Below the pieces are notes generated by a model. The model did no database searches, was not told the DNA's origin, and was given only the letters and a program-made list of their open reading frames with translations. The position numbers were made by a program, and so were the translations under genes. Shown piece after piece: positions 1,232 through 33,768 of a DNA stretch of 39,824 bases. The stretch comes from an uncultured bacterium. Its GTDB lineage: Bacteria > Actinomycetota > Humimicrobiia > Humimicrobiales > Humimicrobiaceae. Position 1 is the first letter of the stretch. The number at the start of each line of letters is the position of its first letter. The DNA lies in contig CBEVGD010000003.1 in NCBI GenBank assembly GCA_965549355.1, positions 1 to 39,824 of the forward strand, written 5' to 3'.

Positions 1232-1232
1232 T

Positions 1233-4119: not shown

Positions 4120-4120
4120 T

Positions 4121-4588
4121 ATGACGATGCAATCGAAACTGATGGAAGAAAGCAAAAAAAATGAGGAAAGGCTGAAAGCAATAAGCCCCTCCAACAGGAT
4201 ACTTTTAATATCCCACTGCTTGAGGTCCAGCAAGAAGTGCACAGCAAAGATGACAAAGGCGGGACTTATGTGCAGGGACGACTGTCCGGATAGATGTACA
4301 GTGGGAAGGCTGAGACTATTAGCTGAAAAAGCAGGCTATAAGGGGGTGTGCATAGCTCCCGGAGGATCCATGGCTCTAAAGTTTATAAAGGAAAACAAAC
4401 CCGAAGGCATAGTCGCCATAGCATGCATGAGAGAGCTGGAGGAAGGCGTATGCGCCGTTAAGGAATTTGCAGGGATAGAAAGCGGTGAAGGCAGTTCTCC
4501 GGTGATTGTGCCGGTGCCGCTTTTAAGAGACGGATGCGTGGATACAGAAGTAGATGAAGAAGAAGCAAAAAGGATAATAAATCTATAA
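4121..4588 (+). CDS. DUF116 family Cys-rich protein
   Basis: HCLRS-KKC-GLMC-DC-RC, CIAPGGS, IACMRELEEG, VPLLRDGCVDTEVD pattern. ATG 4121 preferred over the track start because GAGGAG lies at 4111-4116. Confidence 0.82.
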   Translation: MTMQSKLMEESKKNEERLKAISPSNRILLISHCLRSSKKCTAKMTKAGLMCRDDCPDRCTVGRLRLLAEKAGYKGVCIAPGGSMALKFIKENKPEGIVAIACMRELEEGVCAVKEFAGIESGEGSSPVIVPVPLLRDGCVDTEVDEEEAKRIINL

Positions 4589-4618
4589 AAAAGTATATTT
4601 GTTTTAGGTGATCAAAAG

Positions 4619-11857: not shown

Positions 11858-14368
11858 ATGGCAGATATCATGGATCATCCACTGATCTCTATCTCCATTA
11901 TTAATCTGAATGGTAAAAACTATCTAAAAGATTGTCTTGAAAGTCTCGGGAAGCTGAATTACCCCCCGGATAAAATAGAGATACTATTAGTCGATAATGG
12001 GTCCAGCGATGATTCTGTTAAATTCATAAGGGAAAGATTCCCACGGATTAAAATAATACAAAACAGTAAGAACAATGGCTTTGCAAAAGCCAATAATCAG
12101 GCTGCCGAACTGGCAAAAGGCGAGTATATCGCATTTTTAAATAATGATACCAGGGTTGATAAAAACTGGGCAATAGAGCTGTTAAGGCCCATATATGAAA
12201 ACAGGGAAGTAGCCGCTTCCGGTTCAAAGGTCCTTTCCTTTGACGGGAGCTCCATTGATTTTGTGGGCGGTATGATAAATTTTGAGGGCAAGGGTTTTCA
12301 AATAGACTATGGAAGGCCGTCAGAAGATGATAACCATGATATCAAAAAACTGCTGCCCTTTGTAAATGGCGGAGCTATGATGATAAGAAAGGATGTATTT
12401 CTGGATGCAGGCGGCTTTGATGAGGATTTCTTTGCATATTATGAAGATGTCGATCTTGGATGGCGTCTCTGGGTCCTCGGCTATAAGGTAGTTTTTGCCC
12501 CCGGTTCAATCGTATATCATCACCATCATGGGACATCAAAGATCTTTGGAGAAGACAGGCTGAGATTTTTAAAAGAGAGGAATTCATTATATTCAGTATT
12601 TAAAAACTATGATGACAGCAATCTTGCAAGAGCCTTTTCGGGGACCCTTGCAAATATATTTAATAGAGTATTTGTTGATCTGGACTTTGACTATGGGAAA
12701 TATTATGACCTGTCTGCAGCAGAGGAGGACGACAGCAAAGAAGAGCCCGGGGTATGCATATCAAAGGAACCTCTGAGCTCGCTTGCCGCTGCAAAAAGCT
12801 TTTTTGACAATCTGCCGAAACTGGTGAAAAAAAGGGAGAGAATACAGGCCGCAAGAAAAAGAGATGATAAGGCTATCTTTTCATATTTTAAGGCACAGTT
12901 TATGCCTGTCTCAGCCGACCCTGTCTACCAGAGAAATCATATTGAGATATTAAAGAGCCTTGGCATCCATAAAATATTTGAGAAGGAGATTAAAAGAACG
13001 CTGGTGATCATATCGGGGGAAGTCGTTTCAAGCAGTATGGCCGGCCCTGCTATTAGAGTCTGGAACTTCGCGCGCGTACTCTCTGAATATATGAATGTCA
13101 TACTCGCGGTGCCCAATAAACCGGATATGGCGGAGCAGGACTTTCAGATCATCCAATATAGCGATGAAGGGAAACTAAAAGAAATAATATCATCAGTAGA
13201 TATGATCCTGTGTAATGGGATGACGGTATCCAAATACAGAAGTTTAAAAGATTCGGGGAAATACCTGATAATAGATATTTATGATCCATACAATCTCGCA
13301 ACACTGGCTGAATATCAGGGTGAAAATATGAAGGAGAGATTGGAGATCCACAGCTCTATTCAGAAATATTTCAATGAACAATTTTACTATGGAGACTTTT
13401 TTATATGTGCGTCTGACCGGCAAAGGGACTTCTGGCTCGGCATGCTTGCAGCGCTGAACAGGGTCAATCCTTTCTCGTATAATATTGATCCGAGTATGAG
13501 AAAGATGGTAGATGTGGTGCCTTTCGGGATGCCATCGCATAAACCGATCCATACCGCTGATGTGCTGAAAGGCAGAGTAGAAGGAATCGGAAAGGATGAT
13601 TTCGTTATAATATGGGGAGGCGGGATCTATAACTGGTTTGATCCGTTGACACTAATAAATGCTATGAAGATAGTAAGCTTCAAAAGAAAAGACATAAAGC
13701 TTTACTTCATGGGGATAAAACATCCCAATCCTGAGGTCAAAGAGCTTGATATGGCAGGGAAAACTGTTGAGCTGGCAAAAAGGCTGGAGCTCTATGAGAA
13801 AAACATATTTTTCAATTTTGGCTGGGTAGATTATGACCAGAGGCAGAATTACCTCCTTGAATCGGATGTCGGCATTATTACCCATCCCGGACATATAGAG
13901 ACAAGATTTTCATTCAGGACAAGGATACTTGATTATTTATGGGCGGGCCTTCCTATAATATCGACAGAGGGAGATCATTTAAGTGATAAGGTGAAAACTG
14001 AAAGTCTTGGACTTATTGTAAAAGAAGAATCTCCGGAGGACCTTGCAGAAGCGATCATCAAATTGGCAGAAAAAGGTAGATTCTATGAGGATTGTATTGA
14101 AAACATAGAAAGAATTGGAAAGGATTATACATGGGATAAAGTATGCGAGCCTATTATAGGATTTTGCAAGGACCCTGTTTCCAATGCTCTTAAGCCATCC
14201 GATTCTCCAGATAGCCAAAATACAGAAAATCCCGGTGGTCCGGTAGATAAAATATCAGGGGTATACCTTATTAGAAGGTTCTTCTATCATCTTTTCCGCA
14301 GCGGACCGGGGAAAACCGCAAGATATTTATCAAATCATATGAGCCGCAAACAGGTTAAAAGGATTTAA
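11858..14368 (+). CDS. GT2 + GT4-like fusion glycosyltransferase
   Basis: N-half ISIINLNG, VDNGSSD, NNGFAKANN, FLNND, FFAYYEDVDLGWR (GT2); C-half MAGPAIR, WGGGIYNWFDP, ETRFSFRTRILDYLWAGLP (GT-B). Confidence 0.9.
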   Translation: MADIMDHPLISISIINLNGKNYLKDCLESLGKLNYPPDKIEILLVDNGSSDDSVKFIRERFPRIKIIQNSKNNGFAKANNQAAELAKGEYIAFLNNDTRVDKNWAIELLRPIYENREVAASGSKVLSFDGSSIDFVGGMINFEGKGFQIDYGRPSEDDNHDIKKLLPFVNGGAMMIRKDVFLDAGGFDEDFFAYYEDVDLGWRLWVLGYKVVFAPGSIVYHHHHGTSKIFGEDRLRFLKERNSLYSVFKNYDDSNLARAFSGTLANIFNRVFVDLDFDYGKYYDLSAAEEDDSKEEPGVCISKEPLSSLAAAKSFFDNLPKLVKKRERIQAARKRDDKAIFSYFKAQFMPVSADPVYQRNHIEILKSLGIHKIFEKEIKRTLVIISGEVVSSSMAGPAIRVWNFARVLSEYMNVILAVPNKPDMAEQDFQIIQYSDEGKLKEIISSVDMILCNGMTVSKYRSLKDSGKYLIIDIYDPYNLATLAEYQGENMKERLEIHSSIQKYFNEQFYYGDFFICASDRQRDFWLGMLAALNRVNPFSYNIDPSMRKMVDVVPFGMPSHKPIHTADVLKGRVEGIGKDDFVIIWGGGIYNWFDPLTLINAMKIVSFKRKDIKLYFMGIKHPNPEVKELDMAGKTVELAKRLELYEKNIFFNFGWVDYDQRQNYLLESDVGIITHPGHIETRFSFRTRILDYLWAGLPIISTEGDHLSDKVKTESLGLIVKEESPEDLAEAIIKLAEKGRFYEDCIENIERIGKDYTWDKVCEPIIGFCKDPVSNALKPSDSPDSQNTENPGGPVDKISGVYLIRRFFYHLFRSGPGKTARYLSNHMSRKQVKRI

Positions 14369-14376
14369 ACTTAAAA

Positions 14377-15462
14377 ATGAATACAGAAAAACCGGGGAAA
14401 AAGATAGAGAAGAAGGCAATACTGCTCAGGGTGCTGATCGTAGTGATAGTAGTTACTTTTGGGGCGCTTCTTGTCAGGAAGCTTCTTAATCAGATAAGCA
14501 TATTTGATATAAAAGAGGCTTTTTTTGGCATGTACGGGCCGACTCTTATCGGAGCATTTGCGGTACTGTTGATCGGCAATTTTTTCAGGGCTTACCGCAA
14601 GAACATACTTGTGGGTTCTGACCGCATAGGAATGGGGGATATGTTCCTTGTGTCGATGATAAGGAATGCATTTAATATGGTGCTTCCTGCCAGGACCGGC
14701 GAACTCTCATATATATATGTGCTTACAAACCGGTTTAAATTCCCACTTGAAGTAGGGGTAGCAACACTTATGGTAGCTCTCATATTTGATCTGGCAATAG
14801 TATTCTCATTGATTGTTATAGCGATAATTATCGTAGGGATCAATGCTTATTCTATTTCTTCGGTTTCGGTCATATTGATAGCGGCGGCACTTCTGATATT
14901 TTCGCTGCTTATATTATTTTATATCGCAAATATCATAGACTTTGTACTCATTGCCTACAGAAAAATTCTTAACAGATTCAAAGTGCGGGAAAATAGGCTC
15001 ATATACCGTATCTATAAAAAGCTGCTGGATACCGGTAAAAATCTGAAAATAATAAAAGAAAGAAAGATATACTGGAAGGTGTACCTTTCTTCAATAGCGA
15101 TAAGGGTGCTAAAATTTACCGGTTATTATCTTATAATACATGCAATACTATCTCCTATAGCTATGGGAGGATATAAGTTCAGCGATCTTAATTTTTGGGA
15201 AATACTTCTCGCCACGGCAGCGGCTGAGATATCAGCAGTACTCCCCACTCATGCACTGGCAGGATTTGGAACATATGAGTATGCCTTTGCCGTACCTTTA
15301 ATGGTATTGGGTTTTTCAGAGAATACAGCATTAATTACCGGATTTACCTATCATCTTGTGGTGCTTCTTTATACTGTCGTGCTTGGTATATTATCGATGA
15401 TAATAATCAGCATGCCTTTTTACCGCATTAAGAAAAACAAACCGGAAGAAAACAAACTATAA
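14377..15462 (+). CDS. flippase-like membrane protein (lysylphosphatidylglycerol synthase TM / UPF0104 family)
   Basis: Multi-TM; NMVLPARTGEL, LIFDL, PTHALAGFGTYE motifs. Confidence 0.85.
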   Translation: MNTEKPGKKIEKKAILLRVLIVVIVVTFGALLVRKLLNQISIFDIKEAFFGMYGPTLIGAFAVLLIGNFFRAYRKNILVGSDRIGMGDMFLVSMIRNAFNMVLPARTGELSYIYVLTNRFKFPLEVGVATLMVALIFDLAIVFSLIVIAIIIVGINAYSISSVSVILIAAALLIFSLLILFYIANIIDFVLIAYRKILNRFKVRENRLIYRIYKKLLDTGKNLKIIKERKIYWKVYLSSIAIRVLKFTGYYLIIHAILSPIAMGGYKFSDLNFWEILLATAAAEISAVLPTHALAGFGTYEYAFAVPLMVLGFSENTALITGFTYHLVVLLYTVVLGILSMIIISMPFYRIKKNKPEENKL

Positions 15463-16775
15463 TGGGCAGAGTGAAAATTTTTTTCAATAATATAGGCAAG
15501 GGGCTCTTAACCCCGGGGATCTTTGAAGACAGCAAGCTGTCAAAGAGGTTCTATAAATATTTTCTTACAGGGATGCTTATAAGGCTGATCCTGCTGCCGT
15601 TTTTTTTCCAGAGGGACCTTCTTTCCACCTATCAGAGGGCCGCAGAGACTGTATTTGCCGGAAATATGGCCTCAGGCTTTAAACAGATGCTTATAAGCAT
15701 AATACATTCTTCGTATCTTTTTATTATTAAGAGCATAGTCCCGGCTGTGGGTGATTTCTCAACCATACTCCTGGATCCGGATACATGGACCTCATGGATA
15801 GGATTTGTAAGCAGCTATAATGTATTTACAGTGCTTGCGCTTTTCAAGGGGTTATATCTTATCTTTGACCTGATCTGCATGTTTCTTATCCTGAGGCTCT
15901 CTTTTGATGATGATCCGGAAGGGCGCCTGAATGTGTTTAAATTCTGGATGTTCAATCCTGTAGTGATATTTGTGCTGTATATATTTGCAAGGCACGATAT
16001 TATAGGCGTATGTGCAACTATAGCCGCGCTGATACTGGCGAAAAAGGGCCGGAAATACTGGGCCATCATTGCGCTTGCAGTTGCTATCGCTTTGAGGTTC
16101 TTCCCCGTAATGATATTGCTTCCCCTTATAATATACCTTGCGAGGAGCAAGAAAGATTATATCGCGCTATCTGTTATCGGAGTATCGGGCCTGGCCATTG
16201 TAGAGGTCTTTTCAAATGTCTATTACGGGAAGAGCCTTATCTTCTCACTTTTAAATACCCAGCATTTCAATTATATACTGTCGGCAAAGCTCGACCTCAT
16301 GATCCATGACAGGATATTTTTATTTATTGTGGCCTACTTCCTGATAATATTCAGCTTTATACATGCAAAGAAAAAGAGTTTTGACCTGCTGCTGAATTAT
16401 GGAGCGATAATATATCTGGCATATGTGGCCCTTTGTTATTTTCATCCGCAATATGTACTATGGGCCATACCGTTTCTGGTGATAATCTTTGTCAGGAGAA
16501 GGACGCTTGCATACTATCACTGGCTGCAGTTCGGCCTCTTGATGATAGTGCTCATATACTGGGGCGACCTTGTGACTAAATTCGTTTTTGCCCCTATCGA
16601 TCACAGGTTTTTTATATATATAACCGGACCCATACCATTTATTGAGAGATTCTATAGCTCTGCAACATTTGTAAATATCTTCAGGAGTATATTCTCTGCG
16701 GTCTCATTGTGGATGATATACCTGATATACAGGGACAACCGCAGGATCATTGGAGAAGGGCCGGCAGGAGACTAG
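15462..16775 (+). CDS. GT-C-fold polytopic membrane glycosyltransferase (GT87/PIG-M-like)
   Basis: ~11 hydrophobic segments; LIRL..FF..DL, KGLYLIFDL, WMFNPVVI, ARHDII, HPQYVLWAIPFL motifs. Confidence 0.7.
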   Translation: MGRVKIFFNNIGKGLLTPGIFEDSKLSKRFYKYFLTGMLIRLILLPFFFQRDLLSTYQRAAETVFAGNMASGFKQMLISIIHSSYLFIIKSIVPAVGDFSTILLDPDTWTSWIGFVSSYNVFTVLALFKGLYLIFDLICMFLILRLSFDDDPEGRLNVFKFWMFNPVVIFVLYIFARHDIIGVCATIAALILAKKGRKYWAIIALAVAIALRFFPVMILLPLIIYLARSKKDYIALSVIGVSGLAIVEVFSNVYYGKSLIFSLLNTQHFNYILSAKLDLMIHDRIFLFIVAYFLIIFSFIHAKKKSFDLLLNYGAIIYLAYVALCYFHPQYVLWAIPFLVIIFVRRRTLAYYHWLQFGLLMIVLIYWGDLVTKFVFAPIDHRFFIYITGPIPFIERFYSSATFVNIFRSIFSAVSLWMIYLIYRDNRRIIGEGPAGD

Positions 16776-16777
16776 AC

Positions 16778-17482
16778 ATGGCCAGAAAAAATATATATAT
16801 AATATTAATAATGTTATTACTTCTCGCAGTTATAACGACAGCTGTTTCCGGGTGCCGGAAAGTATTCTTCATGCCCGGAGCAAGCTATGGCTATTATGTA
16901 TGGGAAGAAGAGGGAAAGATCCATATATCCTGGAGCGTTGACAGGAAAGATACTGCTTTTTCCGGTTTCATAGAGACAGACGGCAGGATAGAAAGCTTTG
17001 AAACTGTGGATTGGGAAGAGGCAGATATTGCAGATGCGGGGGAGAATAGGATATCATATTCTTCGACTCTGGACGAAGGGGACTATACTGATGGGATGAT
17101 AATCGAGATAGCAGATCATGAGTATATCGAGCTTGACCTTATGATAAATGGCGGCTATGACCTATCGAGGGTCCATCTCGGAGCATTTCTGGAAAATCCC
17201 ACAAACAGTCCTTTCCGCATCGAAAAGGATCATTTTGATAATGTCAGCGGCATTCCCTGGTACGGGAGACATCCATTCTCAGGTCTTTTTTATAAGCTTT
17301 TTTCTAATAAATATTTTACTTTCCCATATATCTTTATACTTGGAGTCGTGATAATAGAGATCATAAGGATAACTTATGTTTCTACGAAGAAGCGCAAATC
17401 TCTCTATACCGCTATTTCATATATTATATTGATATGTCTGGAAATAATGGTATATTTTATCCTCAGGTTTTTTGTTTTATAA
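16778..17482 (+). CDS. hypothetical lipoprotein with two C-terminal TM helices
   Basis: Start moved to ATG 16778 (AGGAG upstream); MARKN + hydrophobic stretch + AVSG-C lipobox; two hydrophobic helices at the C-terminus. Confidence 0.7.
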   Translation: MARKNIYIILIMLLLLAVITTAVSGCRKVFFMPGASYGYYVWEEEGKIHISWSVDRKDTAFSGFIETDGRIESFETVDWEEADIADAGENRISYSSTLDEGDYTDGMIIEIADHEYIELDLMINGGYDLSRVHLGAFLENPTNSPFRIEKDHFDNVSGIPWYGRHPFSGLFYKLFSNKYFTFPYIFILGVVIIEIIRITYVSTKKRKSLYTAISYIILICLEIMVYFILRFFVL

Positions 17483-17508
17483 ACTATATTAATACCGGGA
17501 GCATTATA

Positions 17509-18372
17509 TTGAAGGTACTTCTGATTGGAGTCGACGGCCAGCTGGGCACTGATATAAGTAAACATTTCACAAAGATGGGTGCAGAGGTGCAGGGCCTTGT
17601 CGGGCTAAAGGAGATCGATATATGCGATTATAATAAGAGTTATGAACTCATAAGGCATTACGGGCCGGACATTGTCATAAACACGGCAGCATTCCATAAT
17701 GTCGACCTCTGCGAGGATGAGATAGTGCAGGCTTTCAAAGTAAATGTAGCCGGTGTGAAAAATATTGCTGCCATATGCAGGGGAATGGATGTGCCCCTGA
17801 TGCATTTTTCGACAGATTATGTATTTGACGGAAGAAAAAAGACCCCCTATCTTGAAGAAGACTGCCCCGGTCCCTTAAGCATCTATGCGATATCGCGGCT
17901 GGGAGGAGAAAGGGTAGTGCAGTATATGCTTGAAAAGTATTATCTTATAAGGCTGTCCGGCCTATACGGCCGTGCCGGTTGTGCCGGAAAAGACAATATT
18001 AATTTTGTCGAGACAATACTCGGGCTGGCAGATACAAAGAAACAGATAAAAGTGGTAGATGACCAGATACTTACCCCGACCGGTACAGTAGATGTGGCAG
18101 AGAAACTCTTTGAGCTTATCGGGACCGGCAGGTATGGACTCTATCATATGACAAATACAGGGAGCTGCTCCTGGTTTGAATTTGCATGTGAGATATTCAA
18201 GCTTGCCGGTATTGATATAGATGTAATCCCGGTATCAAGCGGGCAGTTCGGAGCAAAAGCGGCAAGGCCCGGTTATTCTGTTCTGGATAATGCAAACTTA
18301 AGGGAAGCCGGCCTATCGGATATGAGGGATTGGAAAGAAGCGCTCAGGGAATATATCAGGGATAGAAAGTAA
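17509..18372 (+). CDS. rfbD: dTDP-4-dehydrorhamnose reductase
   Basis: TTG start 17509: KVLLIGVDGQLG, INTAAFHNVD, HFSTDYVFDG, VVDDQILTPT, CSWFEFA, RPGYSVLD. Confidence 0.92.
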   Translation: MKVLLIGVDGQLGTDISKHFTKMGAEVQGLVGLKEIDICDYNKSYELIRHYGPDIVINTAAFHNVDLCEDEIVQAFKVNVAGVKNIAAICRGMDVPLMHFSTDYVFDGRKKTPYLEEDCPGPLSIYAISRLGGERVVQYMLEKYYLIRLSGLYGRAGCAGKDNINFVETILGLADTKKQIKVVDDQILTPTGTVDVAEKLFELIGTGRYGLYHMTNTGSCSWFEFACEIFKLAGIDIDVIPVSSGQFGAKAARPGYSVLDNANLREAGLSDMRDWKEALREYIRDRK

Positions 18373-18389: not shown

Positions 18390-18743
18390 TTAATCATCAG
18401 AAATTTCTTTAATTGCATCTGATTCCTTTAATGCTATGCTTCTTGCAAGTTTCGTGATCCTTGAATCAAGTTCTTCCAGTTTGATAAATATCCGGAAAAT
18501 AAGGTAAAGGATAAGCAAGATGCTGGAAACCATAAAGAAATCAAGACCTCTGCCGAATCCAAAGAAGCTGGCGATGATATGGCTTATATCCGGAAAAATG
18601 GAAAGAAATATCAATATGGTCCAAATCGAGGCCCAGAATATAAATTCATTTATAGTGAGCTTCTTTTTCCTGAGTCTTAGTATGACTTTAGTCAGTGCAA
18701 AAATAGCAAATATTATAGCTATGATCTGAATTGGTTTTATCAT
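18390..18743 (-). CDS. DUF2304 family small membrane protein (GacJ/Rv3632-like)
   Basis: 3 TM, FIFW..IW, IFPD..IASFFGFGRG, C-terminal coiled ITKLARSIAL; directly downstream of DPM1-like GT2. Confidence 0.9.
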   Translation of the reverse strand: MIKPIQIIAIIFAIFALTKVILRLRKKKLTINEFIFWASIWTILIFLSIFPDISHIIASFFGFGRGLDFFMVSSILLILYLIFRIFIKLEELDSRITKLARSIALKESDAIKEISDD

Positions 18744-18774: not shown

Positions 18775-19461
18775 TTATCTTAAAAACCACCTGGCCAGCA
18801 TCTTAAATAAGATATTCAGGCCATTGGATATCCTCTGGCCCTTTTTAATGGAGTAGCCAGTGTATCTTATTGTGACCGGGACCTCAAGATAGCGCAGCTT
18901 CTCCAGTTTGATCTTCTCTATTATCTCTGAAGCATGTTCCATGCCATGAGACTCCAGCTTCATCTTTGCAGCAGCAGCTGCAGTGAATGCACGAAGGCCA
19001 TTATGGGTATCGGTCAGCATTATGCCGTACATTAAAAAAAGAATGAAGGCACCGCCCTTAAGTATTATCCGTTTTGTCCAGGGAGTATTGCTCTTTTTAT
19101 TCAAAAACCTTGAGCCAAGGGCCACCTCAGCCTTATCATCAGCAAGGGGTGCCAGGAGATCGGCTATGTCACCGGCCATATGCTGGCCGTCTGAATCAAA
19201 TGTGACAATTATTTCAGCACCTGACATAAGTGCATAGTCCAGACCGGTCTGTAGTGAAGAACCCTGCCCAAGGTTTATAGGATGCGATAGTACAATGGCT
19301 CTATTATCTTCTGCGATCTTGCCGGTTCTGTCATCGGATCCATCATCTACTACAATAATATTATTGTAGCCATAGTTTCTGAGGTCCTTAATGGCTCCAT
19401 CTATACATTTCTCTTCATTGTATGCGGGAACGACTATGTATACTTTATAAGTTTTATCCAA
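18775..19461 (-). CDS. DPM1-like GT2, polyprenyl-phosphate sugar (probably HexNAc) synthase
   Basis: VVPAYNE, VVDDGSDD, NLGQGSSLQTG, TFDSDGQH, GSRF, TDTHNGLRAF; no TM; paired with DUF2304. Confidence 0.88.
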   Translation of the reverse strand: MDKTYKVYIVVPAYNEEKCIDGAIKDLRNYGYNNIIVVDDGSDDRTGKIAEDNRAIVLSHPINLGQGSSLQTGLDYALMSGAEIIVTFDSDGQHMAGDIADLLAPLADDKAEVALGSRFLNKKSNTPWTKRIILKGGAFILFLMYGIMLTDTHNGLRAFTAAAAAKMKLESHGMEHASEIIEKIKLEKLRYLEVPVTIRYTGYSIKKGQRISNGLNILFKMLARWFLR

Positions 19462-19503: not shown

Positions 19504-21072
19504 TTATTGGATATTTATTTCAATATCTTCTGCTCTGAAATATGTATTATGTGTGGTTAAGCCAAGCTTTACAGAAGCATCCCCCGGATTGGAGCCGGAG
19601 AGCTTTAAAATCAAATTGATCTGGTTGCCGGCATCTATTTTGTAATTATCACTTACCCACATAAAGGTGTCATTCACCTTTCCGGGATATTGAGATATAT
19701 ATCCTGATGGGTCCACATCATCCAGTTCCAGATTTTCTATTTCAAGTTCAAATGAAGTTATCTCCAGGTCCAGGGTATCATTATTGGTTATAGTATATTC
19801 AAGAATAAACTGTTTCCCTGCCGCCTTTGGAGAATTATCCAGGCTGTTTTCTATGTTTAAATCAAGAAGATCCAGATATCCGGCATAATCAGCCGGAGGT
19901 ATATAGCTATTAAATTCGACCCTTCTGATATTACTGATATCTATAGTATTGAGATTTTCTATCCCTCCCCAATATCTTACTGCGCCGCGGTAGCCGGCTT
20001 CAGGGAGCAGAGGGATCTTCTCTTCGGAGTGATTATCATACGGCCAGGCAAATAGCAGGACCTCACTGCCCAGATGGGTTTCGATGGCTTCCCTGGAGCT
20101 GATCAATTCAGATAGGAATTCTTCATCATCTGCCAGTCCAAGACGTATATGATTTGCAGAGTGTGAGAGAAATTCACAGCCATAATCATACATTTCCCGA
20201 ACCTCCGGCCATATCAGCATCGGTCTCATCGGGACCGGCCTGTCGGCGTCAAAGTAATTTACCACCCTGCTATCTTCTGTCTCCTTTATGAAATCTGTTA
20301 CCAGAAATATAGTCATCTTATAGCCATATTCTTTTAGGATGGGAAAGGCATTGACATAAAGATCTCCGAATCCATCATCGGATGTAATAAGGACAGACTT
20401 TTCAGGAAGTACCCTTCCATAGTCAATATGGTCCATCAGGTCCTTAAACGTAATGGTCTCAAAACCAAAACTTTTTAATGTCTGGCAGAGTGCATTAAAA
20501 TGATGAGTATATAATTCTATGGGTATTTCTATCTTGTCCTCAATAGCATGAAGTCCTATGATGGGGAGCCTTTCTCTTATATAAGGCTGTACCCCAAAAA
20601 CCAGCAGACTCTCTTCATCTGAGATAAATTCTGAATCTTTTCCTTCATTAATGGATAATAATGCAGAGACAGGAGTATCTCTGACAAGCTCCTCTATGAC
20701 TTTTAGCGATATGCTATGTTCTACTGACTGCCCCGCCCCGGGGCTCTCAATCACAAAAGAAGTAGATCCCGGGTCTGCCAGCAGCAGATCACCTGGTATT
20801 AATTTGACCTCAATACCGGCATCGGCGCCGCCAGAATTAACAATACTGATATCGGCACGGACAGTTTCCCCGGGATAAAGATCCCCTCCATTGATATCGA
20901 TAAGCTCAAGAGTTGATCCTGTAAATGATACAGGAGCGGGCTCTGTCCCAATAGTCTCCGGATCCGTTCCGGGTTCACAGGATATAAGAGATAATAGAGC
21001 CAATAATACAATATTGATGCTTAGGAATATATAGAAATGCCTTTTAAATATGATTTTTAAATAATTGTTCAA
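19504..21072 (-). CDS. CE4 polysaccharide deacetylase lipoprotein with flanking Ig-like domains
   Basis: LLSLIS-C lipobox; LITSDDGFGD, SHSANH, FAWPY (IcaB/PgaB-type CE4 motifs); beta-rich N- and C-terminal domains. Confidence 0.85.
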   Translation of the reverse strand: MNNYLKIIFKRHFYIFLSINIVLLALLSLISCEPGTDPETIGTEPAPVSFTGSTLELIDINGGDLYPGETVRADISIVNSGGADAGIEVKLIPGDLLLADPGSTSFVIESPGAGQSVEHSISLKVIEELVRDTPVSALLSINEGKDSEFISDEESLLVFGVQPYIRERLPIIGLHAIEDKIEIPIELYTHHFNALCQTLKSFGFETITFKDLMDHIDYGRVLPEKSVLITSDDGFGDLYVNAFPILKEYGYKMTIFLVTDFIKETEDSRVVNYFDADRPVPMRPMLIWPEVREMYDYGCEFLSHSANHIRLGLADDEEFLSELISSREAIETHLGSEVLLFAWPYDNHSEEKIPLLPEAGYRGAVRYWGGIENLNTIDISNIRRVEFNSYIPPADYAGYLDLLDLNIENSLDNSPKAAGKQFILEYTITNNDTLDLEITSFELEIENLELDDVDPSGYISQYPGKVNDTFMWVSDNYKIDAGNQINLILKLSGSNPGDASVKLGLTTHNTYFRAEDIEINIQ

Positions 21073-21429
21073 AAATTCTTCTTATTATTTTTATATTCTA
21101 AACCTATTTATTTTCGGGCCCATGACATTAGAAAGTCATGAACCCTGCATACTGAGACTTTTACTAATTCGGTCACATTAATATAACACAAAAACATCAA
21201 ATTTTTAAAAAATTTGTTTGCATATGGATTTTTACCATATTTTATTATTTAAACAGGTATATTTTTGGCATAAAATTTGATTTGATGTTTTAATAAGAAA
21301 GTGCCCTGATCAGGAAATAAAGATATTAAAGGAAAGATTCAATAGATTGAGAATGTCTGGCGATGTTCTTGCTATGGCAGGCATTATAATATTGATTCTA
21401 AAAATAACACTTTAAAAACTGGAGAAAAA

Positions 21430-23319
21430 GTGGCTGATAAAATAAGGGGTCTATATGGCAGATGGAAAAATATTATCTTTATGGCCCTTGCCTTTACCAT
21501 ACCTTTTGTCATATATGTGCTCACGCTGGAAAGAAAGCTCGTAGGAGGGGATACTACCTGGTATGCTCTGCAGATACCGGAAATGAGCATAATGGTCCCC
21601 ACGGGCTATCCGGCTTTCAGCTTGCTTTTAAAGCTCTTCACTTTTCTGCCGGTTGGGGACCTTGCTTACAGGCTGAACCTCTTCTCCGCACTCTTTGGCG
21701 GCCTCACGATATTGTTTCTATTCCTTGCCATAAATAAGCTTATAAAAAATGAGATATTCAGCCTATCGGGTTCGCTTATATTCTCATTCTTATTTCCTTA
21801 CTGGTCCATAGCTAATAGGCTGGAATTTGATACGTTAAACAGCTTTTTTATTGTACTTGTACTGTACTCAGCAGTTTTATACAACGGAATAAAAAACAGA
21901 AAATTTCTCTATTTTTTCTTCTTCTGTCTGGGTCTGAGCCTTACCAACCACCCTATTGCATTTTTTGTGGTGCCCGCAATACTGCTTTATGTAATAATAG
22001 AAAACTCAAAGATATTTAAAAGTTTAAGAGCCGTACTTATTTCCATACTTTATTTCATCCTGCCGCTTCTTTCATATTTTTATCTGCTTATAAGGTCCAG
22101 GCAGGGGCATGGGCCCGTTACTGATCCGGTGAAGCTCTTTTATTATATGACTGGAAGAAAGGTGACGGGAACGCTCCACGGAGGAACTTTTTTTGATGAG
22201 TCTCCCGGTCATGTGCTGGGTGTTATGGGGGATTATCTCTGGATAATCTATGATGCTTTTGGCCCCATCCTGATAATCGTAGCGGTGGCAGGGCTGGTAT
22301 ATCTTATCAGAAAGAACTGGAAATTTGGTTTATGTCTGATGCTCTTTATGGGATTCAATATAATAGTGCCGCCGCTTTATCTTCCTTTTGCTAATGACAA
22401 TTATGTGATAGATTCCATGATCGTGGCTGCTATTTTCATAAGTTTTGGCTTCCTGCTTATCATGGACGGCTCTGCATGGCTATTTAAAAAAGCAGTCATG
22501 GACAGGAAGCTTTTAAAGGCGGACCGGTTCCTGAAGTATTTGATGATAGCTGCGATATTTATAACTTCAATGGCCATTCCAATTTTTCAGGTAACTCAAT
22601 TTTATAAGGTACATGACCGTTCAGAGCCGCTTAGCATTTATAAATTCTGGGAACAGGCTTTTGAAAATATGGAAGAAGATTCGGTTATATACGTTCATGC
22701 TACTTCTGAGAATGTAGGAATGTTTCTGGACCGCTATGAGTATCATGATAAGAATATTGATTTTTATTGTTCCCGAACCCCTGGATATTCCCAGGAGAAT
22801 GCCCTTAAGGATTTTGAGGCCGGAAGGGATGTATATTTTGTCGGAAGAGAAGCTCTGTTTAAGTTTATATTTAATACTGAAAAAGTAGGCAGGATTTTTC
22901 TGGTGAGAAGATATGGAGAGTTCCTTCAATTATATAAGACTACCGGTGTTTTTAAATCACTGAAGATAGACTATTCCATAGATGGTAAAGTGAAGGAATT
23001 CGGGGAAAAATTTCAGATAGAGTTTACCATTGAGAACAAGAACCCTGAACCGGTGCAGATAACCTCTATTGAACTGGAGCTTCCCGGCAATATAGATCTT
23101 CTAAATGTGGATCCGGAAGGATATATCAGCCAGGGCCCCGGTATGAGCCGCGGCATCTATATGTGGGTAAGTGATAACTATGTTGTCGATCCTGACAGTG
23201 AAGTAAACCTGATAGTGTATCTGCAGGGGACAGTGCCTGGAAAGGGCGTGATCAATTTCAGGATAACCACTCATGATGTATATATTGAGGCCAGTGGAAT
23301 TGAGATAGATATAAAGTAG
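21430..23319 (+). CDS. DUF2723 (TMEM260-like) GT-C membrane glycosyltransferase with C-terminal Ig-like domain
   Basis: YVLTL..GGDT..Y, PTGYPAF, AYRLNLFSALFG, LGLSLTNHP, YFYLLIRS match the DUF2723 pattern; multi-TM then soluble tail. Confidence 0.85.
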   Translation: MADKIRGLYGRWKNIIFMALAFTIPFVIYVLTLERKLVGGDTTWYALQIPEMSIMVPTGYPAFSLLLKLFTFLPVGDLAYRLNLFSALFGGLTILFLFLAINKLIKNEIFSLSGSLIFSFLFPYWSIANRLEFDTLNSFFIVLVLYSAVLYNGIKNRKFLYFFFFCLGLSLTNHPIAFFVVPAILLYVIIENSKIFKSLRAVLISILYFILPLLSYFYLLIRSRQGHGPVTDPVKLFYYMTGRKVTGTLHGGTFFDESPGHVLGVMGDYLWIIYDAFGPILIIVAVAGLVYLIRKNWKFGLCLMLFMGFNIIVPPLYLPFANDNYVIDSMIVAAIFISFGFLLIMDGSAWLFKKAVMDRKLLKADRFLKYLMIAAIFITSMAIPIFQVTQFYKVHDRSEPLSIYKFWEQAFENMEEDSVIYVHATSENVGMFLDRYEYHDKNIDFYCSRTPGYSQENALKDFEAGRDVYFVGREALFKFIFNTEKVGRIFLVRRYGEFLQLYKTTGVFKSLKIDYSIDGKVKEFGEKFQIEFTIENKNPEPVQITSIELELPGNIDLLNVDPEGYISQGPGMSRGIYMWVSDNYVVDPDSEVNLIVYLQGTVPGKGVINFRITTHDVYIEASGIEIDIK

Positions 23320-23470: not shown

Positions 23471-25435
23471 ATGGAACTTAAGAAACCGGCAACTATAGTA
23501 AAAAACAGACTGAGCTCTTCTTATAAAAAGTCTAAGAAACAGGCAGTTGGATCAATAAGCAGATTGGGCTCTTTGCTAAAAAAGGTTTTTAAAAAAATTA
23601 AAAATTTTCGGATAAAAATAAAATTGGGCAAGAAGAACATAATAATTATAGTATCAGTTTTCGTGGTGGTACTGATTGCTGCCGCAGCTGGATATTACTA
23701 TTATTTCCACATATACAGTATGCCTAATTTCGAGGATGAATTGTATAATAATGTAGTTACTGCTTCTATGGAAAGGATCAGCCCCGGGGATTCTCTCACC
23801 TATAAAGTGAATTACAAAAATAGCGGATACCGCGATGTAGACATATTACAGATAACTATCGGGATCCCGGAAAACACCTCCCTTGAGTCAAGTACCGGGG
23901 GTGGGACCTATGATGAGCAAAACAGGCTGCTTCAGTATACGATAAAAAAAATACCCAGAGAATCTTCAGGAAGTATCGAATTTGTAATGGAAGTAGCAGA
24001 GCCGCTTGATAGCGGGACAGAGATCATTCCGGGAGAAGTGAAGTTCGATTATTCCATCGGAGAAGGAAGCTTTGAGAAACTTTTGGACAGCGGGGGTGGC
24101 CATATTGTTGAAAGCAGCCCGGACTTTAGCTCCCTTTCTGTTTCTTCTGTGGATATTAATGGAGGCATACTGGGGCTTGAAGATGAAATAAAATATACTA
24201 TTAATATTAAAAATACCGGAAATATGATAGCAAGAGATGTAGAAGTAAGGAGCCGGTTATCACCGCATATGAGCCCGAACGGGAGCTACATAAGTCAATC
24301 CGGCAAGTATAGCGACGGATGCGTGGTATGGGATTTTGAAGAACTGCTGCCGGGCGAGCAGAAAACGCTGACCTTCAGGGCAAAGCTTGAGAGCGGCGAA
24401 GTCGGAGACAGGGAAGAGATAATAAACAGCACAGCACTTATCTATGGCGGCGAGGTAAAAGCTGAAAAAGAAGTTGTCAATATAGTAAGGCTTTTCCCGG
24501 ACTTTTCTGAAAGTACCGCCACTATTGCAGATACAAATGGCGGAAGCTATCTATGGTCCGGCGATACAGTAAGAGTCAAGGTGACTATTAGAAATACCGG
24601 CCAGATAAAAGCTGATGACTACAGGCTCTTTTGCCCCATACCCGGTCCCGCAACATATGTAAGCAGATCAGGAACAGCTGAGGGCATCAAATGGAGCGAT
24701 GATATAAAAGGGTTAATCTGGGACCTGAGCGGACTGGAAGTGGGGGAGTCAAAGGAAATAACTTTCAATATGACTGTAGATAGCAGCTATTACTATAAAA
24801 GCGGCACCATAACGACAGATTTTCATATTGCAGCCGGTGATGAGGATTTTGTCATCGAACCGGTAAGTATCTATATACAGGGGCATCCATACCTTAATGT
24901 TGTGGCGATGGGAGATTCTCTTATTGCAAAGTCAGACTGGGTACAGAGGCTGGATGGCAAACTTGAAGCGGCATATCCAGCTGCTGATTATAATACGCTT
25001 GCCAGTGCTGTGAGCGGTGAAGCTTCTTACCAGGGACTTGCCAGATTTGACGGCACAGTAGCTCCCCTGCATCCACATATACTTATTGTTGCCTATGGGA
25101 CAAATGATGCCGGAGGGAGCTTAAGCTATTTTCAGTACAGTATTGATAGTATTGTTGCAAAGGCAAAAAATATCGGGGCCACTGTATTTATAAATCTGAT
25201 AGGACCCATAAGTGCATCGGGCAAATCCAACTGGCCCAGATACAATGAAGTTATAATGGCGGTATCTGCCAAATATGGGGTGCCTGTTATAAATGTGACC
25301 TCGCCGCTTTCACAAAATACGGGCAAGTATTTGTCAGATGGGGTGCATTATACGCCCGCAGGTTCGGAAGTAGTGGCACAGACTGTATTTAATAGTATTT
25401 CCCAATACCTTAATGGTCTTGGCGGCAGGAGGTAA
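23471..25435 (+). CDS. membrane-anchored SGNH/GDSL hydrolase with three DUF11-like repeats
   Basis: Basic N-terminus + TM; three ~126-aa repeats (..GD.L.Y.I...NTG..); AMGDSL, YGTND, DGVHY catalytic blocks. Confidence 0.88.
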   Translation: MELKKPATIVKNRLSSSYKKSKKQAVGSISRLGSLLKKVFKKIKNFRIKIKLGKKNIIIIVSVFVVVLIAAAAGYYYYFHIYSMPNFEDELYNNVVTASMERISPGDSLTYKVNYKNSGYRDVDILQITIGIPENTSLESSTGGGTYDEQNRLLQYTIKKIPRESSGSIEFVMEVAEPLDSGTEIIPGEVKFDYSIGEGSFEKLLDSGGGHIVESSPDFSSLSVSSVDINGGILGLEDEIKYTINIKNTGNMIARDVEVRSRLSPHMSPNGSYISQSGKYSDGCVVWDFEELLPGEQKTLTFRAKLESGEVGDREEIINSTALIYGGEVKAEKEVVNIVRLFPDFSESTATIADTNGGSYLWSGDTVRVKVTIRNTGQIKADDYRLFCPIPGPATYVSRSGTAEGIKWSDDIKGLIWDLSGLEVGESKEITFNMTVDSSYYYKSGTITTDFHIAAGDEDFVIEPVSIYIQGHPYLNVVAMGDSLIAKSDWVQRLDGKLEAAYPAADYNTLASAVSGEASYQGLARFDGTVAPLHPHILIVAYGTNDAGGSLSYFQYSIDSIVAKAKNIGATVFINLIGPISASGKSNWPRYNEVIMAVSAKYGVPVINVTSPLSQNTGKYLSDGVHYTPAGSEVVAQTVFNSISQYLNGLGGRR

Positions 25436-28742: not shown

Positions 28743-30635
28743 TTAATTCTTCATTTTCTCGGCCAGTTCATTTAGATATGTCCACCGCTGTATTTTTTCG
28801 CCAAGCTCTGCCTGGAGTTCTTTTTGCCGGGCAGCAAGCTCCTTCATTTTTGAAGGATTGGACCAGCTATCGTTTATTTCCTGCTCGATCCCTGTCAGGG
28901 AAGATTCTATTGTCTCAATGACTCTATCGATTCCGGCAAACTCCCTGCTTTCAGCAAAAGTAAATTTTGGTTTTTTATTGATTTTTACCGGGTCCTTATC
29001 CCTGTTTGCCGATTTACTTTTTTTTAATATCCCGGACTTCCCGCGTGATAAGCTGCGTCTATATGCCTCAAGGTCATTATAGAACTCAATTTTTCCATTG
29101 CTTTTGACTGCTATTATCCTGTCAGTTGTCTTGTTTAAAAAATATCTGTCATGGGATACCACAAGAACGGCTCCCGGGAAGTATTCCAGATATTCCTCCA
29201 GTACTTCCAGGGTCTGGATATCGAGATCATTTGTCGGCTCATCGAGAAGCAAGACATTAGGCTTTTCAATCAGCACTTTAGCGAGGTAGAGCCGCCTTTT
29301 CTCACCGCCGGAAAGACTATTTATCAAATTGTATTGATGGCTGCTTTCAAAAAGGAACCTTTCGAGCATCTGACCCGCTGAAATAGAGCCGCCATTGCCT
29401 GTCTCGACATATTCTGCCGTTTGCCTGATATAATCTATTGCCCGGATAGAGGGATCCATATCTTCATTATTCTGGCGGTAATAAGCGACTTTGACCGTTT
29501 TGCCGATATCGACGCTGCCTGTATCCGGAACAGTCAATCCGGCAATAAGATTTAGAAGGATCGTCTTCCCGGCTCCATTTGGGCCGACTATGCCTATCCT
29601 GTCGCTACGGCCCAGAAGGAAACTAAAGTTCTTTATCACTGCCTCGCTATCGAATGATTTGGAAACATTGTCAAATTCAACTACCTTTTTCCCAAGACGG
29701 GTATAGGCTGCCGGTATTTCGAATTGCCTGCCGGTAATTTTATTTCCAGCTTTTTTGATCTCCTCAAAACGCTGGATCCTGGCTTTCTGTTTGGTCGTTC
29801 TTGCTCTGGCTCCCCTCCGTATCCAGGCCAGCTCATTTGCGTATAGCCTCCTGCGCTTTTTTTCCATAGAAGTCTGTACTTCTTTTTGAAGAGTCTTCTT
29901 TTCCAGATAATATTCAAAGCTGCCATTATATGAATAGAGCCTGCCCCTGTCGATCTCAATAATACGGTCGACTACCCTGTCCAGAAAATAACGGTCATGG
30001 GTCACAAGAAGCAGCGCCCCCTTTTGCTGGCTCAAATAATCCTCAAGCCATTCAATCGTCTCAAGATCTATATGGTTGGTAGGTTCATCCAGGATCAGGA
30101 GGTCCGCAGGCTGGATAAGTGCCTCTGCCATGGCAATTCTTTTTCTCTGTCCTCCTGACAGCTCTCCGACTTTTCGGTTCATATCTGATATGCCGAGCTT
30201 GCTCAGGATGCTTTTAGCTTTGCTTTCCAGGGTCCAGGCATTAAGTTCGTCCATTCTTGAGGTATGCTCCATTAGCATGTTTTGAAGGTTTTTGTCGTCC
30301 GGCGCCCTTTCCATGCGGTTCATTATGTCCCCATATAATCTGACAGTCTTCATCAGTTGGTTTCCGCCCTGCAGAATCTGCTCCAGCACAGTCATATTTC
30401 CATCAAATCTTAAGTCCTGTGATAGATGCCGGATCTTTAAATTATTTCCCCTGACGATGCTTCCTGAGTCAGGTTCGACGGCCCCGCTGACCATATTTAG
30501 GAATGTAGATTTTCCTGCTCCATTAATACCGACCACGCCAATGCGGTCGCTATCGGTGATCCCAAGAGATATATGCTCAAATAGTATCTTCTCATTAAAG
30601 CTCTTCGCCGCATCTTCGATAGAAATAATATTCAT
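28743..30635 (-). CDS. ABC-F family ATPase, Uup-like
   Basis: Start moved to ATG 30635 (MNIISIE..., TAATG overlap); two ABC cassettes (GINGAGKST, LSGGQ, LDEPTNH; GPNGAGKT, LSGGE, LDEPTND), ARARTTKQKARI linker, C-terminal coiled coil, no TM. Confidence 0.92.
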   Translation of the reverse strand: MNIISIEDAAKSFNEKILFEHISLGITDSDRIGVVGINGAGKSTFLNMVSGAVEPDSGSIVRGNNLKIRHLSQDLRFDGNMTVLEQILQGGNQLMKTVRLYGDIMNRMERAPDDKNLQNMLMEHTSRMDELNAWTLESKAKSILSKLGISDMNRKVGELSGGQRKRIAMAEALIQPADLLILDEPTNHIDLETIEWLEDYLSQQKGALLLVTHDRYFLDRVVDRIIEIDRGRLYSYNGSFEYYLEKKTLQKEVQTSMEKKRRRLYANELAWIRRGARARTTKQKARIQRFEEIKKAGNKITGRQFEIPAAYTRLGKKVVEFDNVSKSFDSEAVIKNFSFLLGRSDRIGIVGPNGAGKTILLNLIAGLTVPDTGSVDIGKTVKVAYYRQNNEDMDPSIRAIDYIRQTAEYVETGNGGSISAGQMLERFLFESSHQYNLINSLSGGEKRRLYLAKVLIEKPNVLLLDEPTNDLDIQTLEVLEEYLEYFPGAVLVVSHDRYFLNKTTDRIIAVKSNGKIEFYNDLEAYRRSLSRGKSGILKKSKSANRDKDPVKINKKPKFTFAESREFAGIDRVIETIESSLTGIEQEINDSWSNPSKMKELAARQKELQAELGEKIQRWTYLNELAEKMKN

Positions 30636-33270: not shown

Positions 33271-33768
33271 ATGGCAGGGGATTACGGAAAAATGAGATTC
33301 ATCCTCATAATCATAAGTTTTATAAATATTTTTCTTTATTATGCTGCGTATGCATATTTTGATAGTATTCTTGCTGCTCTTGCCAGATATGAGCTTCCCC
33401 TGAGTTTTCTTACCTTCCTGAAATATTTTATAATCTTTGTGCTGGGCTTTTTGATTGGTTTTCTGATAATTCTCGCTATGAGGCTGAGAGTCAGCATGAA
33501 TTACTTCGACTTAAAGGTACTTCTGATGGTAGGGCTTGTTCCGGCGCTTGCTATCATCCTTTCATATTCCGGTCTGGTAAGTTTTCTTGTAAACTCTATC
33601 TTTAAATCCAATGAGGCTATAAGTGAGCTGTATTATTATTTCTTCTCAAGGACCGATATATGGGCCCTCTGGCTGGGTGTTGCGACCGGTTCGTCGATCA
33701 GGCTCAAACTGCTCCATAAGAAAAAGTATAAGCATCAGGCGATCGAACAAAGGACAAATCACTTCTGA
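33271..33768 (+). CDS. hypothetical 4-TM membrane protein, paralog B2
   Basis: Start 33271 or 33292; MRFILIIISFIN vs MRIFLIILSFIN, FDLKVLLMVGLVP vs FDVKNLLLVGTVP, WALWLG vs WSVWLG. Confidence 0.8.
   Translation: MAGDYGKMRFILIIISFINIFLYYAAYAYFDSILAALARYELPLSFLTFLKYFIIFVLGFLIGFLIILAMRLRVSMNYFDLKVLLMVGLVPALAIILSYSGLVSFLVNSIFKSNEAISELYYYFFSRTDIWALWLGVATGSSIRLKLLHKKKYKHQAIEQRTNHF

Follow-up and report, generated by a model that had tools for sequence, protein, structure and literature searches.

In a 39,824-nucleotide stretch of DNA from an uncultured bacterium of the family Humimicrobiaceae (Actinomycetota; GenBank assembly GCA_965549355.1, contig CBEVGD010000003.1, positions 1 to 39,824; hereafter the window), two neighbouring genes encode a CE4 deacetylase and a GT-C glycosyltransferase that end in the same domain, here called the tail. 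The tail defines a delimited, unnamed C-terminal family that is shared by the GT-C enzyme and the exported CE4 enzyme of one gene cluster, a pairing conserved in no fewer than 12 genera of this uncultured family. This family and its sharing are new; the enzymes, the three-component logic of the system and the immunoglobulin-like (Ig-like) fold were known before. Our preferred explanation, held tentatively, is that a module with which the GT-C enzyme targets its acceptor or ligand was copied onto the deacetylase, and that both enzymes act at one envelope target, to which the tail is predicted to bind.

The shared tail and its distribution

Aligned by BLASTP, the CE4 tail (118 residues) and the GT-C tail (119 residues) showed 53/119 identities (45%) and 78/119 positives with one gap (E 7e-35). 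A preliminary description of this DNA had arrived at the same figure by hand count (about 53 identities in 119 positions), and the shared blocks that it listed (ITS.ELE, VDPxGYISQxPG, MWVSDNY, NLI and TTH..Y..A..IEI.I) were all found in both sequences. As it had also stated, the catalytic parts are unrelated: that of the deacetylase belongs to Polysacc_deac_1 and that of the transferase to TMEM260-like/PMT_2, and they have nothing in common. Identity of the two tails at third codon positions was just 0.36, and the same codon was used at 23/53 identical residues; the similarity is therefore old and has been maintained by selection at the protein level. Recent gene conversion or an assembly artefact as the source of the shared tail was ruled out by the same third-position identity.

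We aligned 32 tails from the window and 20 further loci (13 from CE4 and 19 from GT-C enzymes). Conserved residues included N26, S36, E38, P60, M68 and W69; Ser36 was invariant in 32/32 tails, and T103 was nearly invariant. A single Cys was present at the same position ('N/D-C-DD') in 9/10 tails of genera g3, g7 and g8, on both enzymes, whereas other clades have Ala or Ser there. The Cys-bearing clade consists of loci L022-L025 and L031 (genomes G013, G017, G018, G029 and G034). This clade-specific Cys could reflect shared ancestry, or it could form an intermolecular disulfide.

We searched 1,835,955,588 representative proteins with a profile built from the two window tails and re-scored the 65 matches at E <= 1e-3 with the 32-sequence profile. 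A real tail was present in 42 of the 65 (18 GT-C enzymes, 4 CE4 enzymes and 20 fragments too short to class). Every classifiable carrier among these 42 was a GT-C or a CE4 enzyme, with no third enzyme type. In 40 of the 42 the tail ended 0-9 residues from the C-terminus, and the two exceptions are fragments. The remaining 23 matches were long Ig-repeat proteins with a weak match or none on re-scoring. In the aligned set, 32/32 tails ended 0-4 residues before the stop codon. When a single tail was used to look for related loci, five records were returned, four of them titled as metagenome-assembled genomes (MAGs) of uncultured Actinomycetota and the fifth simply as "bacterium".

The window's own genome, a 1.75-Mb, 94%-complete MAG, contains exactly two tail copies, with none on the SGNH protein encoded beside the pair. 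Within the class, the tail was detected in 57/87 genomes, all of the window's family (56/79 other members); it was found in 0/2 and 0/5 genomes of two other families of the class and in 0/17 genomes of other families of the phylum. Related genomes carry one to four copies, usually two. Two or more copies were present in 43 genomes. In 31 of these, two tails lay within 4 kb of each other on one contig; many of the 12 others had contig-end fragments or GT-C pairs. The tail has persisted on both enzymes in 12 or more genera with synonymous sites saturated. The preliminary description had named occurrence only at the C-termini of envelope enzymes in syntenic loci as a sign of a tag-like role, and the profile census and the family survey agree in finding that pattern. 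The two pictures that it set against this role, an ordinary DUF11/CARDB module scattered at internal positions of many proteins and orthologues that usually lack the tail or lie apart, do not describe what we found: the tail is always C-terminal and on two enzyme types only, and the pair is mostly co-located. Divergent transcription, also pointed out there, is true of the window and exceptional elsewhere; among the 31 co-located pairs, 23 are tandem (GT-C then CE4), 7 are convergent and only that of the window is divergent.

Two tailed GT-C paralogues, instead of a GT-C and a CE4 enzyme, were present in G065 (in tandem, contig C140, 5443-7749) and in G014, G021, G073, G090 and G091. The tailed CE4 enzyme of G017 is apparently split (locus L031, contig C64, 2625-3915), its catalytic match lying in two pieces and its tail in an open reading frame (ORF) of 312 aa; a frameshift, pseudogenisation or faulty assembly accounts for this.

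A sorting role was among those first proposed for the tail. A beta-sandwich at the extreme C-terminus does resemble the C-terminal domain (CTD) of the type IX secretion system (T9SS), and the same position would be taken by a tag for sorting or secretion such as a T9SS-CTD, a PEP-CTERM or a sortase signal. Such tags are carried by many cargo proteins, in contrast to the two copies of the window genome and the one to four of each relative. Moreover, one carrier is a polytopic membrane protein, which is not secretable, and the second is a lipoprotein as it stands; the sequences have no hydrophobic or charged anchor after the tail, and the host belongs to a lineage of Actinomycetota. We regard such a tag as extremely improbable, and its rejection is based on the two copies per genome and the polytopic membrane carrier.

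Fold, family and origin of the tail

AlphaFold2, run on the 32-tail alignment, produced an all-beta model of ten strands (predicted local distance difference test score, pLDDT, 97.2; predicted template modelling score, pTM, 0.89). In an exhaustive VIA-align search, 137 chains matched this model at Z >= 8, among them a macroglobulin (MG) domain of complement C5 (Z 11.6, root-mean-square deviation 1.9 over 103 residues), bacterial alpha-2-macroglobulin (Z 11.3), the transglutaminase C-terminal barrel (Z 11.1) and the cohesin module 2vo8 (Z 11.0, 115 residues aligned). The tail region of a full-length GT-C model matched macroglobulin MG domains at Z 11.6-12.5. The tail is an Ig-like (E-set) beta-sandwich, and the beta-sandwich proposed in the preliminary description was thus confirmed. 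With cohesin and MG domains the tail shares the fold only: the sequences are 7-18% identical, ties with unrelated Ig-like domains are many, and no dockerin-like partner was found.

No named family took in the tail, in agreement with the earlier failure to recognise one. In Pfam, 0/32 tails reached a family threshold, and the commonest weak matches were Ig-like families; DUF11 (PF01345) matched 4/32 tails weakly (best E 0.037), below its gathering threshold, and CARDB (PF07705) was not listed. For the window tails, Pfam gave no family for that of CE4 and DUF1573 at E 0.077, below threshold, for that of GT-C, and NCBIfam gave nothing for either. The 32-tail profile matched solved structures by sequence at chance level only (E 1.7).

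A distant DUF11-like nature, which the preliminary description had considered possible, was faintly visible in three kinds of comparison. Long DUF11/DUF7933/DUF1573 repeat proteins aligned to tail positions 12-46 only. Profile comparisons were weak, whether with the N-terminal Ig-like domain of the window CE4 enzyme (hhalign probability 19.5%, E 0.0012) or with a DUF11 repeat of the neighbouring SGNH protein (probability 8.2%). The nearest ESM Atlas clusters of the tail were DUF11 clusters (score 0.88-0.91), with 144-162 shared features where 170 are typical within a family. Like DUF11, CARDB and DUF1573 domains, the tail is an all-beta sandwich, and it resembles them at the level of motifs (G..F.IEY.I.N, S.ELELP and MW); unlike them, it is single-copy and strictly C-terminal rather than an internal repeat. 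The tail is an unnamed family of the Ig-like class and not a member of DUF11, of which it is possibly a remote relative.

With a fold this generic, the tail might be a passive Ig-like spacer or stabiliser that the two enzymes share through local duplication, with no common target. Other envelope enzymes of the family do carry Ig-like DUF11/CARDB domains (the SGNH protein, the N-terminus of CE4 and tailless CE4 paralogues), and the tail motifs resemble structural motifs of DUF11, a likeness weak in profile comparisons. For a neutral spacer, however, one would expect replacement by DUF11 of the common type or acquisition by further enzymes, whereas this subtype is confined to two enzymes and always to their extreme C-termini, and it has persisted on both despite the saturation of synonymous sites. 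We consider a passive module improbable.

In the tail tree, rooted at its midpoint, the deepest branches held GT-C tails only; GT-C tails were paraphyletic and CE4 tails were nested among them. Genomes G014, G021, G025, G026 and G036 contain tailed GT-C enzymes, sometimes two paralogues, with only tailless CE4 homologues. In GT-C enzymes, tail and core were conserved to a similar degree (33-66% versus 30-68% identity), whereas CE4 tails were less conserved than CE4 cores (35-47% versus 48-70%). Because of the GT-C-only deep branches, the genomes with tailless CE4 and this contrast between tail and core, the sequences suggest that the tail probably first belonged to the GT-C clade and was then copied to the neighbouring CE4 enzyme. 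Tails of partners in the same genome were more alike than tails of partners from different genomes (47.1% versus 43.1% identity, a difference exceeding that of all but 25 of 10000 permutations).

The two enzymes in their gene cluster

The transferase belongs to PF11028 (77.7 bits versus a cutoff of 24.2), which makes it a TMEM260-like GT-C enzyme (CAZy GT117), and human TMEM260 (9rql, E 4.5e-19) is the protein of solved structure nearest to it in sequence. Its D41, invariant in 24/24 sequences, aligns with the catalytic D52 of TMEM260 and supplies the Asp expected in the first extracytoplasmic loop; a D52A mutant of TMEM260 is reported to be inactive (PMC10214176). In the full-length AlphaFold2 model (pLDDT 89.2, pTM 0.79), residues 4-507 superposed on STT3 (Z 26.3), Pmt1/2 (Z 25.8), PglB (Z 24.6) and ArnT (Z 24.3). 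Residues 508-629 matched isolated Ig-like domains only, and the tail is an extra module beyond the GT-C fold. An acceptor-binding domain of tetratricopeptide repeats (TPR) was absent from the model, in which residues 396-507 are alpha/beta and residues 511-629 all-beta, and Pfam found no TPR in the protein. The last transmembrane (TM) segment in the hydropathy profile covers residues 370-391 and is preceded by a loop with 6 K/R; under the positive-inside rule, and by GT-C precedent, residues 392-629 would lie outside the cytoplasmic membrane.

The deacetylase is a member of PF01522 (E 8.2e-22, 77.9 bits versus a cutoff of 23.1). CE4 enzymes are defined by the motifs TxDD, HxxxH and xPY, which appeared in its orthologues as TSDDG (11/11), H[ST]xNH (11/11) and WPY (9/11). 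A lipobox, LISC, follows the signal peptide, and its Cys was kept in 11/11 orthologues. On both enzymes the tail would therefore be exposed outside the cytoplasmic membrane, as the lipobox of the one and the predicted topology of the other suggest. The nearest solved relatives of the deacetylase are the poly-N-acetylglucosamine (PNAG) deacetylases PgaB/BpsB (E 8e-12); it stayed below the equivalog cutoffs of PgaB (TIGR03938, 79.9 bits versus 321.9) and IcaB (38.3 versus 248). The N-terminal domain of one CE4 orthologue (P0005) matched DUF11/CARDB.

Coordinates of the pair, its parts and its neighbours are collected in Table 1.

Table 1. Genes and domains around the shared tail (positions in the window)
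Feature	Position	Strand	Basis or remark
CE4 deacetylase gene, 522 aa	19504-21072	-	Polysacc_deac_1 at residues 222-363
GT-C transferase gene, 629 aa	21430-23319	+	TMEM260-like/PMT_2 at residues 45-211
CE4 C-terminal tail domain, residues 405-522	19507-19860	-	paralogue of GT-C tail; reaches stop codon
GT-C C-terminal tail domain, residues 511-629	22960-23316	+	Ig-like beta-sandwich of unnamed family
GT-C without tail: TM core (~1-391) and extracytoplasmic alpha/beta domain (~396-507)	21430-22959	+	PF11028, model
CE4 lipoprotein without tail: signal peptide, lipobox LISC, CARDB/DUF11-like Ig-like domain (~45-155), catalytic domain (222-363)	19861-21072	-	PF01522
PpgS-like GT2, 228 aa, putative polyprenyl-phosphate N-acetylhexosamine (HexNAc) synthase	18775-19461	-	NF058614
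DUF2304 small membrane protein (GacJ/Rv3632 family), presumed GT2 activator	18390-18743	-	PF10066
Membrane-anchored protein with three DUF11 domains, CARDB and C-terminal SGNH/GDSL hydrolase	23471-25435	+	Pfam
Divergent CE4/GT-C intergenic region, 357 bp, presumed promoter region	21073-21429	.	presumed from gene layout only

The GT2 gene begins on the same strand as CE4, 42 bp after the CE4 stop codon; the DUF2304 gene follows it directly, and the GT-C gene is ~2 kb from this pair. By far the best NCBIfam match of the GT2 protein was PpgS, the polyprenyl-phospho-N-acetylgalactosaminyl synthase (NF058614; E 4.6e-62, 209.4 bits, full length), short of the equivalog cutoff of 370 bits; it also matched dolichol-P-mannose synthase (5mlz, E 2.5e-12) and ArnC (E 1.7e-6). 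The DUF2304 protein belongs to PF10066 (E 1.6e-27, 96.3 bits versus a cutoff of 25.5) and is encoded next to the GT2, in a cluster with a GT-C enzyme. Genomes G021 and G036 have the same layout of GT2, DUF2304 and GT-C. A PpgS-like GT2 (51-54% identical) adjoins the GT-C gene at loci L034, L041 and L045, in genomes with the tail on GT-C only; a DUF2304 gene follows that GT2 at L034 and L041, and none was detected at L045. The six tandem-type upstream stretches that we compared have a ~30%-identical GT2, ~1 kb upstream of GT-C in five of them, as in G034, and nearly 3 kb away in the sixth (G062). The SGNH protein, a third component of the cluster, is conserved too: in 7 distinct loci of other genomes it is encoded after the GT-C/CE4 pair.

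In G034, the GT2 is a protein of 319 aa (AglJ-, dolichyl-P-hexose-, PpgS- and ArnC-like) encoded divergently from GT-C, which is immediately preceded by two small membrane ORFs (140 aa and 113 aa; L052, contig C6, 4536-5303, + strand). The 140-aa protein is weakly ArnE/ArnF-like (E 1e-9, below cutoffs). The intergenic region between the window pair has no counterpart of these small ORFs.

DUF2304 proteins are reported to activate such GT2 enzymes, GacJ of Streptococcus pyogenes acting on GacI and Rv3632 of Mycobacterium tuberculosis on PpgS (bioRxiv 10.1101/180810), and the GT-C enzymes GacL and Rv3779 to transfer lipid-linked HexNAc to wall polysaccharide (bioRxiv 10.1101/180810; PMC3485146). 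By analogy, the locus would be a system that decorates the envelope with lipid-linked HexNAc or amino sugar and includes an exported deacetylase. Beside the DUF2304 and GT2 genes, an RmlD-like dTDP-4-dehydrorhamnose reductase is encoded at 17434-18372 (+ strand, E 1.6e-82), and an RmlD-like gene is also found near GT-C at L026, L028, L031 and L038. Its presence hints at a rhamnose-containing wall polysaccharide as the acceptor, by analogy with streptococcal GacI/J/L.

The window as a whole is an envelope-glycan island. It contains several GT2 and GT4 genes, a TylF-like methyltransferase, an LPG_synthase_TM protein and two fused glycosyltransferases, a GT4+GT2 of 789 aa at 7309-9678 (- strand) and a GT2+GT4 of 836 aa at 11858-14368 (+ strand). 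A hopanoid-type cluster occupies 227-5530 (+ strand) of this small-genome Actinomycetota MAG, with genes for a radical SAM protein with DUF3463 (HpnH-like), an NAD-dependent epimerase/dehydratase, a squalene-hopene cyclase (636 aa), a DUF116 protein and a GHMP kinase. Two + strand ORFs, of 437 aa at 15462-16775 and of 257 aa at 16709-17482, had no Pfam or NCBIfam match; the shorter product has C-terminal hydrophobic segments, and both are syntenic in the relatives L031, L038 and L040 (44-69% identity). PD40/beta-propeller proteins are encoded on the - strand at 30635-32431 (598 aa) and 33759-35729 (656 aa), and a PD40/beta-propeller-like protein also adjoins a tailless CE4 gene of G026. Promoter-like sites between 18300 and 23600 were not clearly above the number in shuffled sequences (26 versus 18.3 +/- 4.5), and neither were terminators in a corresponding scan.

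Role of the tail and comparison with known systems

According to the explanation that we favour, the tail would originally have formed the outer end of the extracytoplasmic C-terminal region in the GT-C enzyme, the region that recognises the acceptor in GT-C enzymes, and would later have been copied to the C-terminus of the neighbouring CE4 lipoprotein. The PpgS-like GT2, helped by the DUF2304 protein, would load HexNAc on polyprenyl phosphate; the lipid-linked sugar would be flipped to the outer face, where the GT-C enzyme would transfer it to an envelope acceptor. CE4 would act on the lipid-linked sugar or on the product and remove its N-acetyl group, which would leave an amino sugar. The shared tail is predicted to bind the same acceptor polymer, or a ligand of the pathway, such that transfer and deacetylation take place at the same site.

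Several results weigh against this explanation. Neither Foldseek nor VIA singled out a specific carbohydrate-binding module or a functional relative; both returned generic Ig-like domains only (MG domains, transglutaminase barrels, cohesin, pilins and YcnI), and several conserved tail residues sit in motifs that presumably correspond to structural hallmarks of DUF11. The direction of copying relies on a tree rooted at the midpoint only; a single CE4-tail clade was not rejected (approximately unbiased test, AU, p 0.286), and the tree is compatible with one copy event or with several. The lower conservation of the tail than of the core in CE4 enzymes is a further point of this kind. Tailless CE4 paralogues, such as those of G026 (L047, 823 aa) and G014 (L048, 681 aa), have an N-terminal DUF11/CARDB stalk and a C-terminal CE4 domain, and tailless GT-C paralogues also occur; since tailless paralogues of both exist, the tail is not generally required by either class. 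Within one clade, the identity between tails of own partners (58.5%) did not differ from that between other partners (58.4%), which attributes the greater likeness of partner tails to shared ancestry and leaves continuing genome-level co-evolution of partner tails unsupported. Finally, the GT2 score below the PpgS cutoff leaves HexNAc as a putative sugar.

The architecture of the tailless CE4 enzymes of G026 and G014 mirrors that of the DUF11-SGNH protein. The tailless CE4 enzyme of G020 (L050, 516 aa) had a weak CARDB match (E 1e-4) below the Pfam cutoff.

Instead of binding a common target, the tails may bind each other, or the CE4 tail may bind the GT-C enzyme, which would keep the lipoprotein deacetylase attached to the transferase, with putative direct passage of deacetylated, lipid-linked HexNAc to the GT-C active site. 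Such docking would suit the adjacency of tail genes in 31/43 genomes, and under the logic of the Arn and PpgS pathways CE4 could supply the donor that GT-C uses, which would favour physical coupling. Copying a self-associating domain would be a simple route to recruiting a partner, the fold resembles cohesin (among other Ig-like domains, many unrelated ones of which tie with it), and the clade-specific Cys is found on both enzymes. Against this stand the absence of genome-specific co-variation between partner tails and the tailed GT-C enzymes of genomes without a tailed CE4, in which the tail must have a role that does not need CE4. A prediction of the two-tail complex from alignment inputs scored 0.00 against a mark of 0.32 in a run that did not include folded controls, and speaks neither for nor against binding. 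On this evidence we think docking unlikely.

TMEM260 is reported to O-mannosylate Ig-like IPT domains (PMC10214176), and the tail could by that precedent be a substrate rather than a binding module, with GT-C glycosylating Ser36 of the tail on itself and on CE4. The invariance of Ser36, the near invariance of T103 and the wealth of Ig-like domains at the locus would agree with this. The sequon proposed for TMEM260, P-x5-P-x3-G-P-x2-[GA]-G-G-x2-[TS], was not seen in the tail on inspection by eye; CE4 and the PpgS-like GT2 point to glycan HexNAc chemistry and away from protein O-mannosylation, and an enzyme that bears its own acceptor would be unusual. We judge this reading very improbable.

Returning to the explanation based on a copied targeting module, it may also place the deacetylase in a gap of known pathways. 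For the mycobacterial galactosamine pathway, flipping and deacetylation are assigned to unidentified factors in PMC9671496. The exported CE4 enzyme might represent the type of extracytoplasmic de-N-acetylase missing from PpgS- and GacI-like pathways, recruited by the copied tail and coupled to the transferase through a complex or through co-binding of the acceptor; we rate this stronger proposal as rather doubtful.

Systems in which a GT2, in many cases aided by a small membrane protein, puts a sugar on a lipid carrier and a GT-C enzyme transfers it outside the membrane are widespread and decorate cell walls, lipid A and glycoproteins, and how the enzymes that follow are held at the same extracellular site is poorly understood. 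If the tail is a targeting or docking module, it offers a testable model for the coupling of extracytoplasmic glycan-modifying steps and a candidate class for the missing deacetylase. If recruitment by a copied tail is true, it would show how an extracytoplasmic metabolon can evolve by simple means. Whatever its role, the new family can be defined from the 32-sequence alignment, within the limits set by uncultured hosts and an ordinary fold. A search of the literature on DUF2723, GT117 and DUF2304, outside subscription journals and supplements, found no paper on a bacterial TMEM260-like enzyme or on the shared tail.

Among known systems, human TMEM260, the GT117 protein O-mannosyltransferase, has a GT-C core related to that of the window enzyme, with an aligned catalytic Asp, and likewise an alpha/beta domain followed by an extracytoplasmic C-terminal module that varies. 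That module consists of TPR repeats that bind the peptide acceptor, whereas the window GT-C ends in an Ig-like sandwich; TMEM260 O-mannosylates protein, whereas the donor and acceptor of the window enzyme are probably HexNAc and a glycan.

The Arn pathway comprises the GT2 ArnC, the CE4-type deformylase ArnD, the flippase ArnE/F and the GT-C enzyme ArnT. There, too, an amino sugar is attached to an acceptor in the envelope by the combined action of a GT2, a CE4-family de-N-acylase, a small flippase pair and a GT-C enzyme; the window GT-C model superposes on ArnT, as given above, and an ArnE/F-like protein is encoded beside the pair in G034. The two differ in that ArnD acts on the cytoplasmic side and the window CE4 is an exported lipoprotein, and the sequence relation between the systems is weak. 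We know of no domain shared between ArnD and ArnT.

Further parallels are the GacI/GacJ/GacL and PpgS/Rv3632/Rv3779 systems, in which a GT2 loads HexNAc, a DUF2304 protein is its partner and a GT-C enzyme completes the set; an RmlD-like gene lies beside the window locus, and in the mycobacterial PpgS pathway the sugar is reported to end up de-N-acetylated (PMC9671496). The window GT-C is TMEM260-like, of a family to which GacL and Rv3779 may also belong. To the common plan of these systems, the window cluster adds an exported CE4 deacetylase, an SGNH hydrolase and the tail shared by GT-C and CE4.

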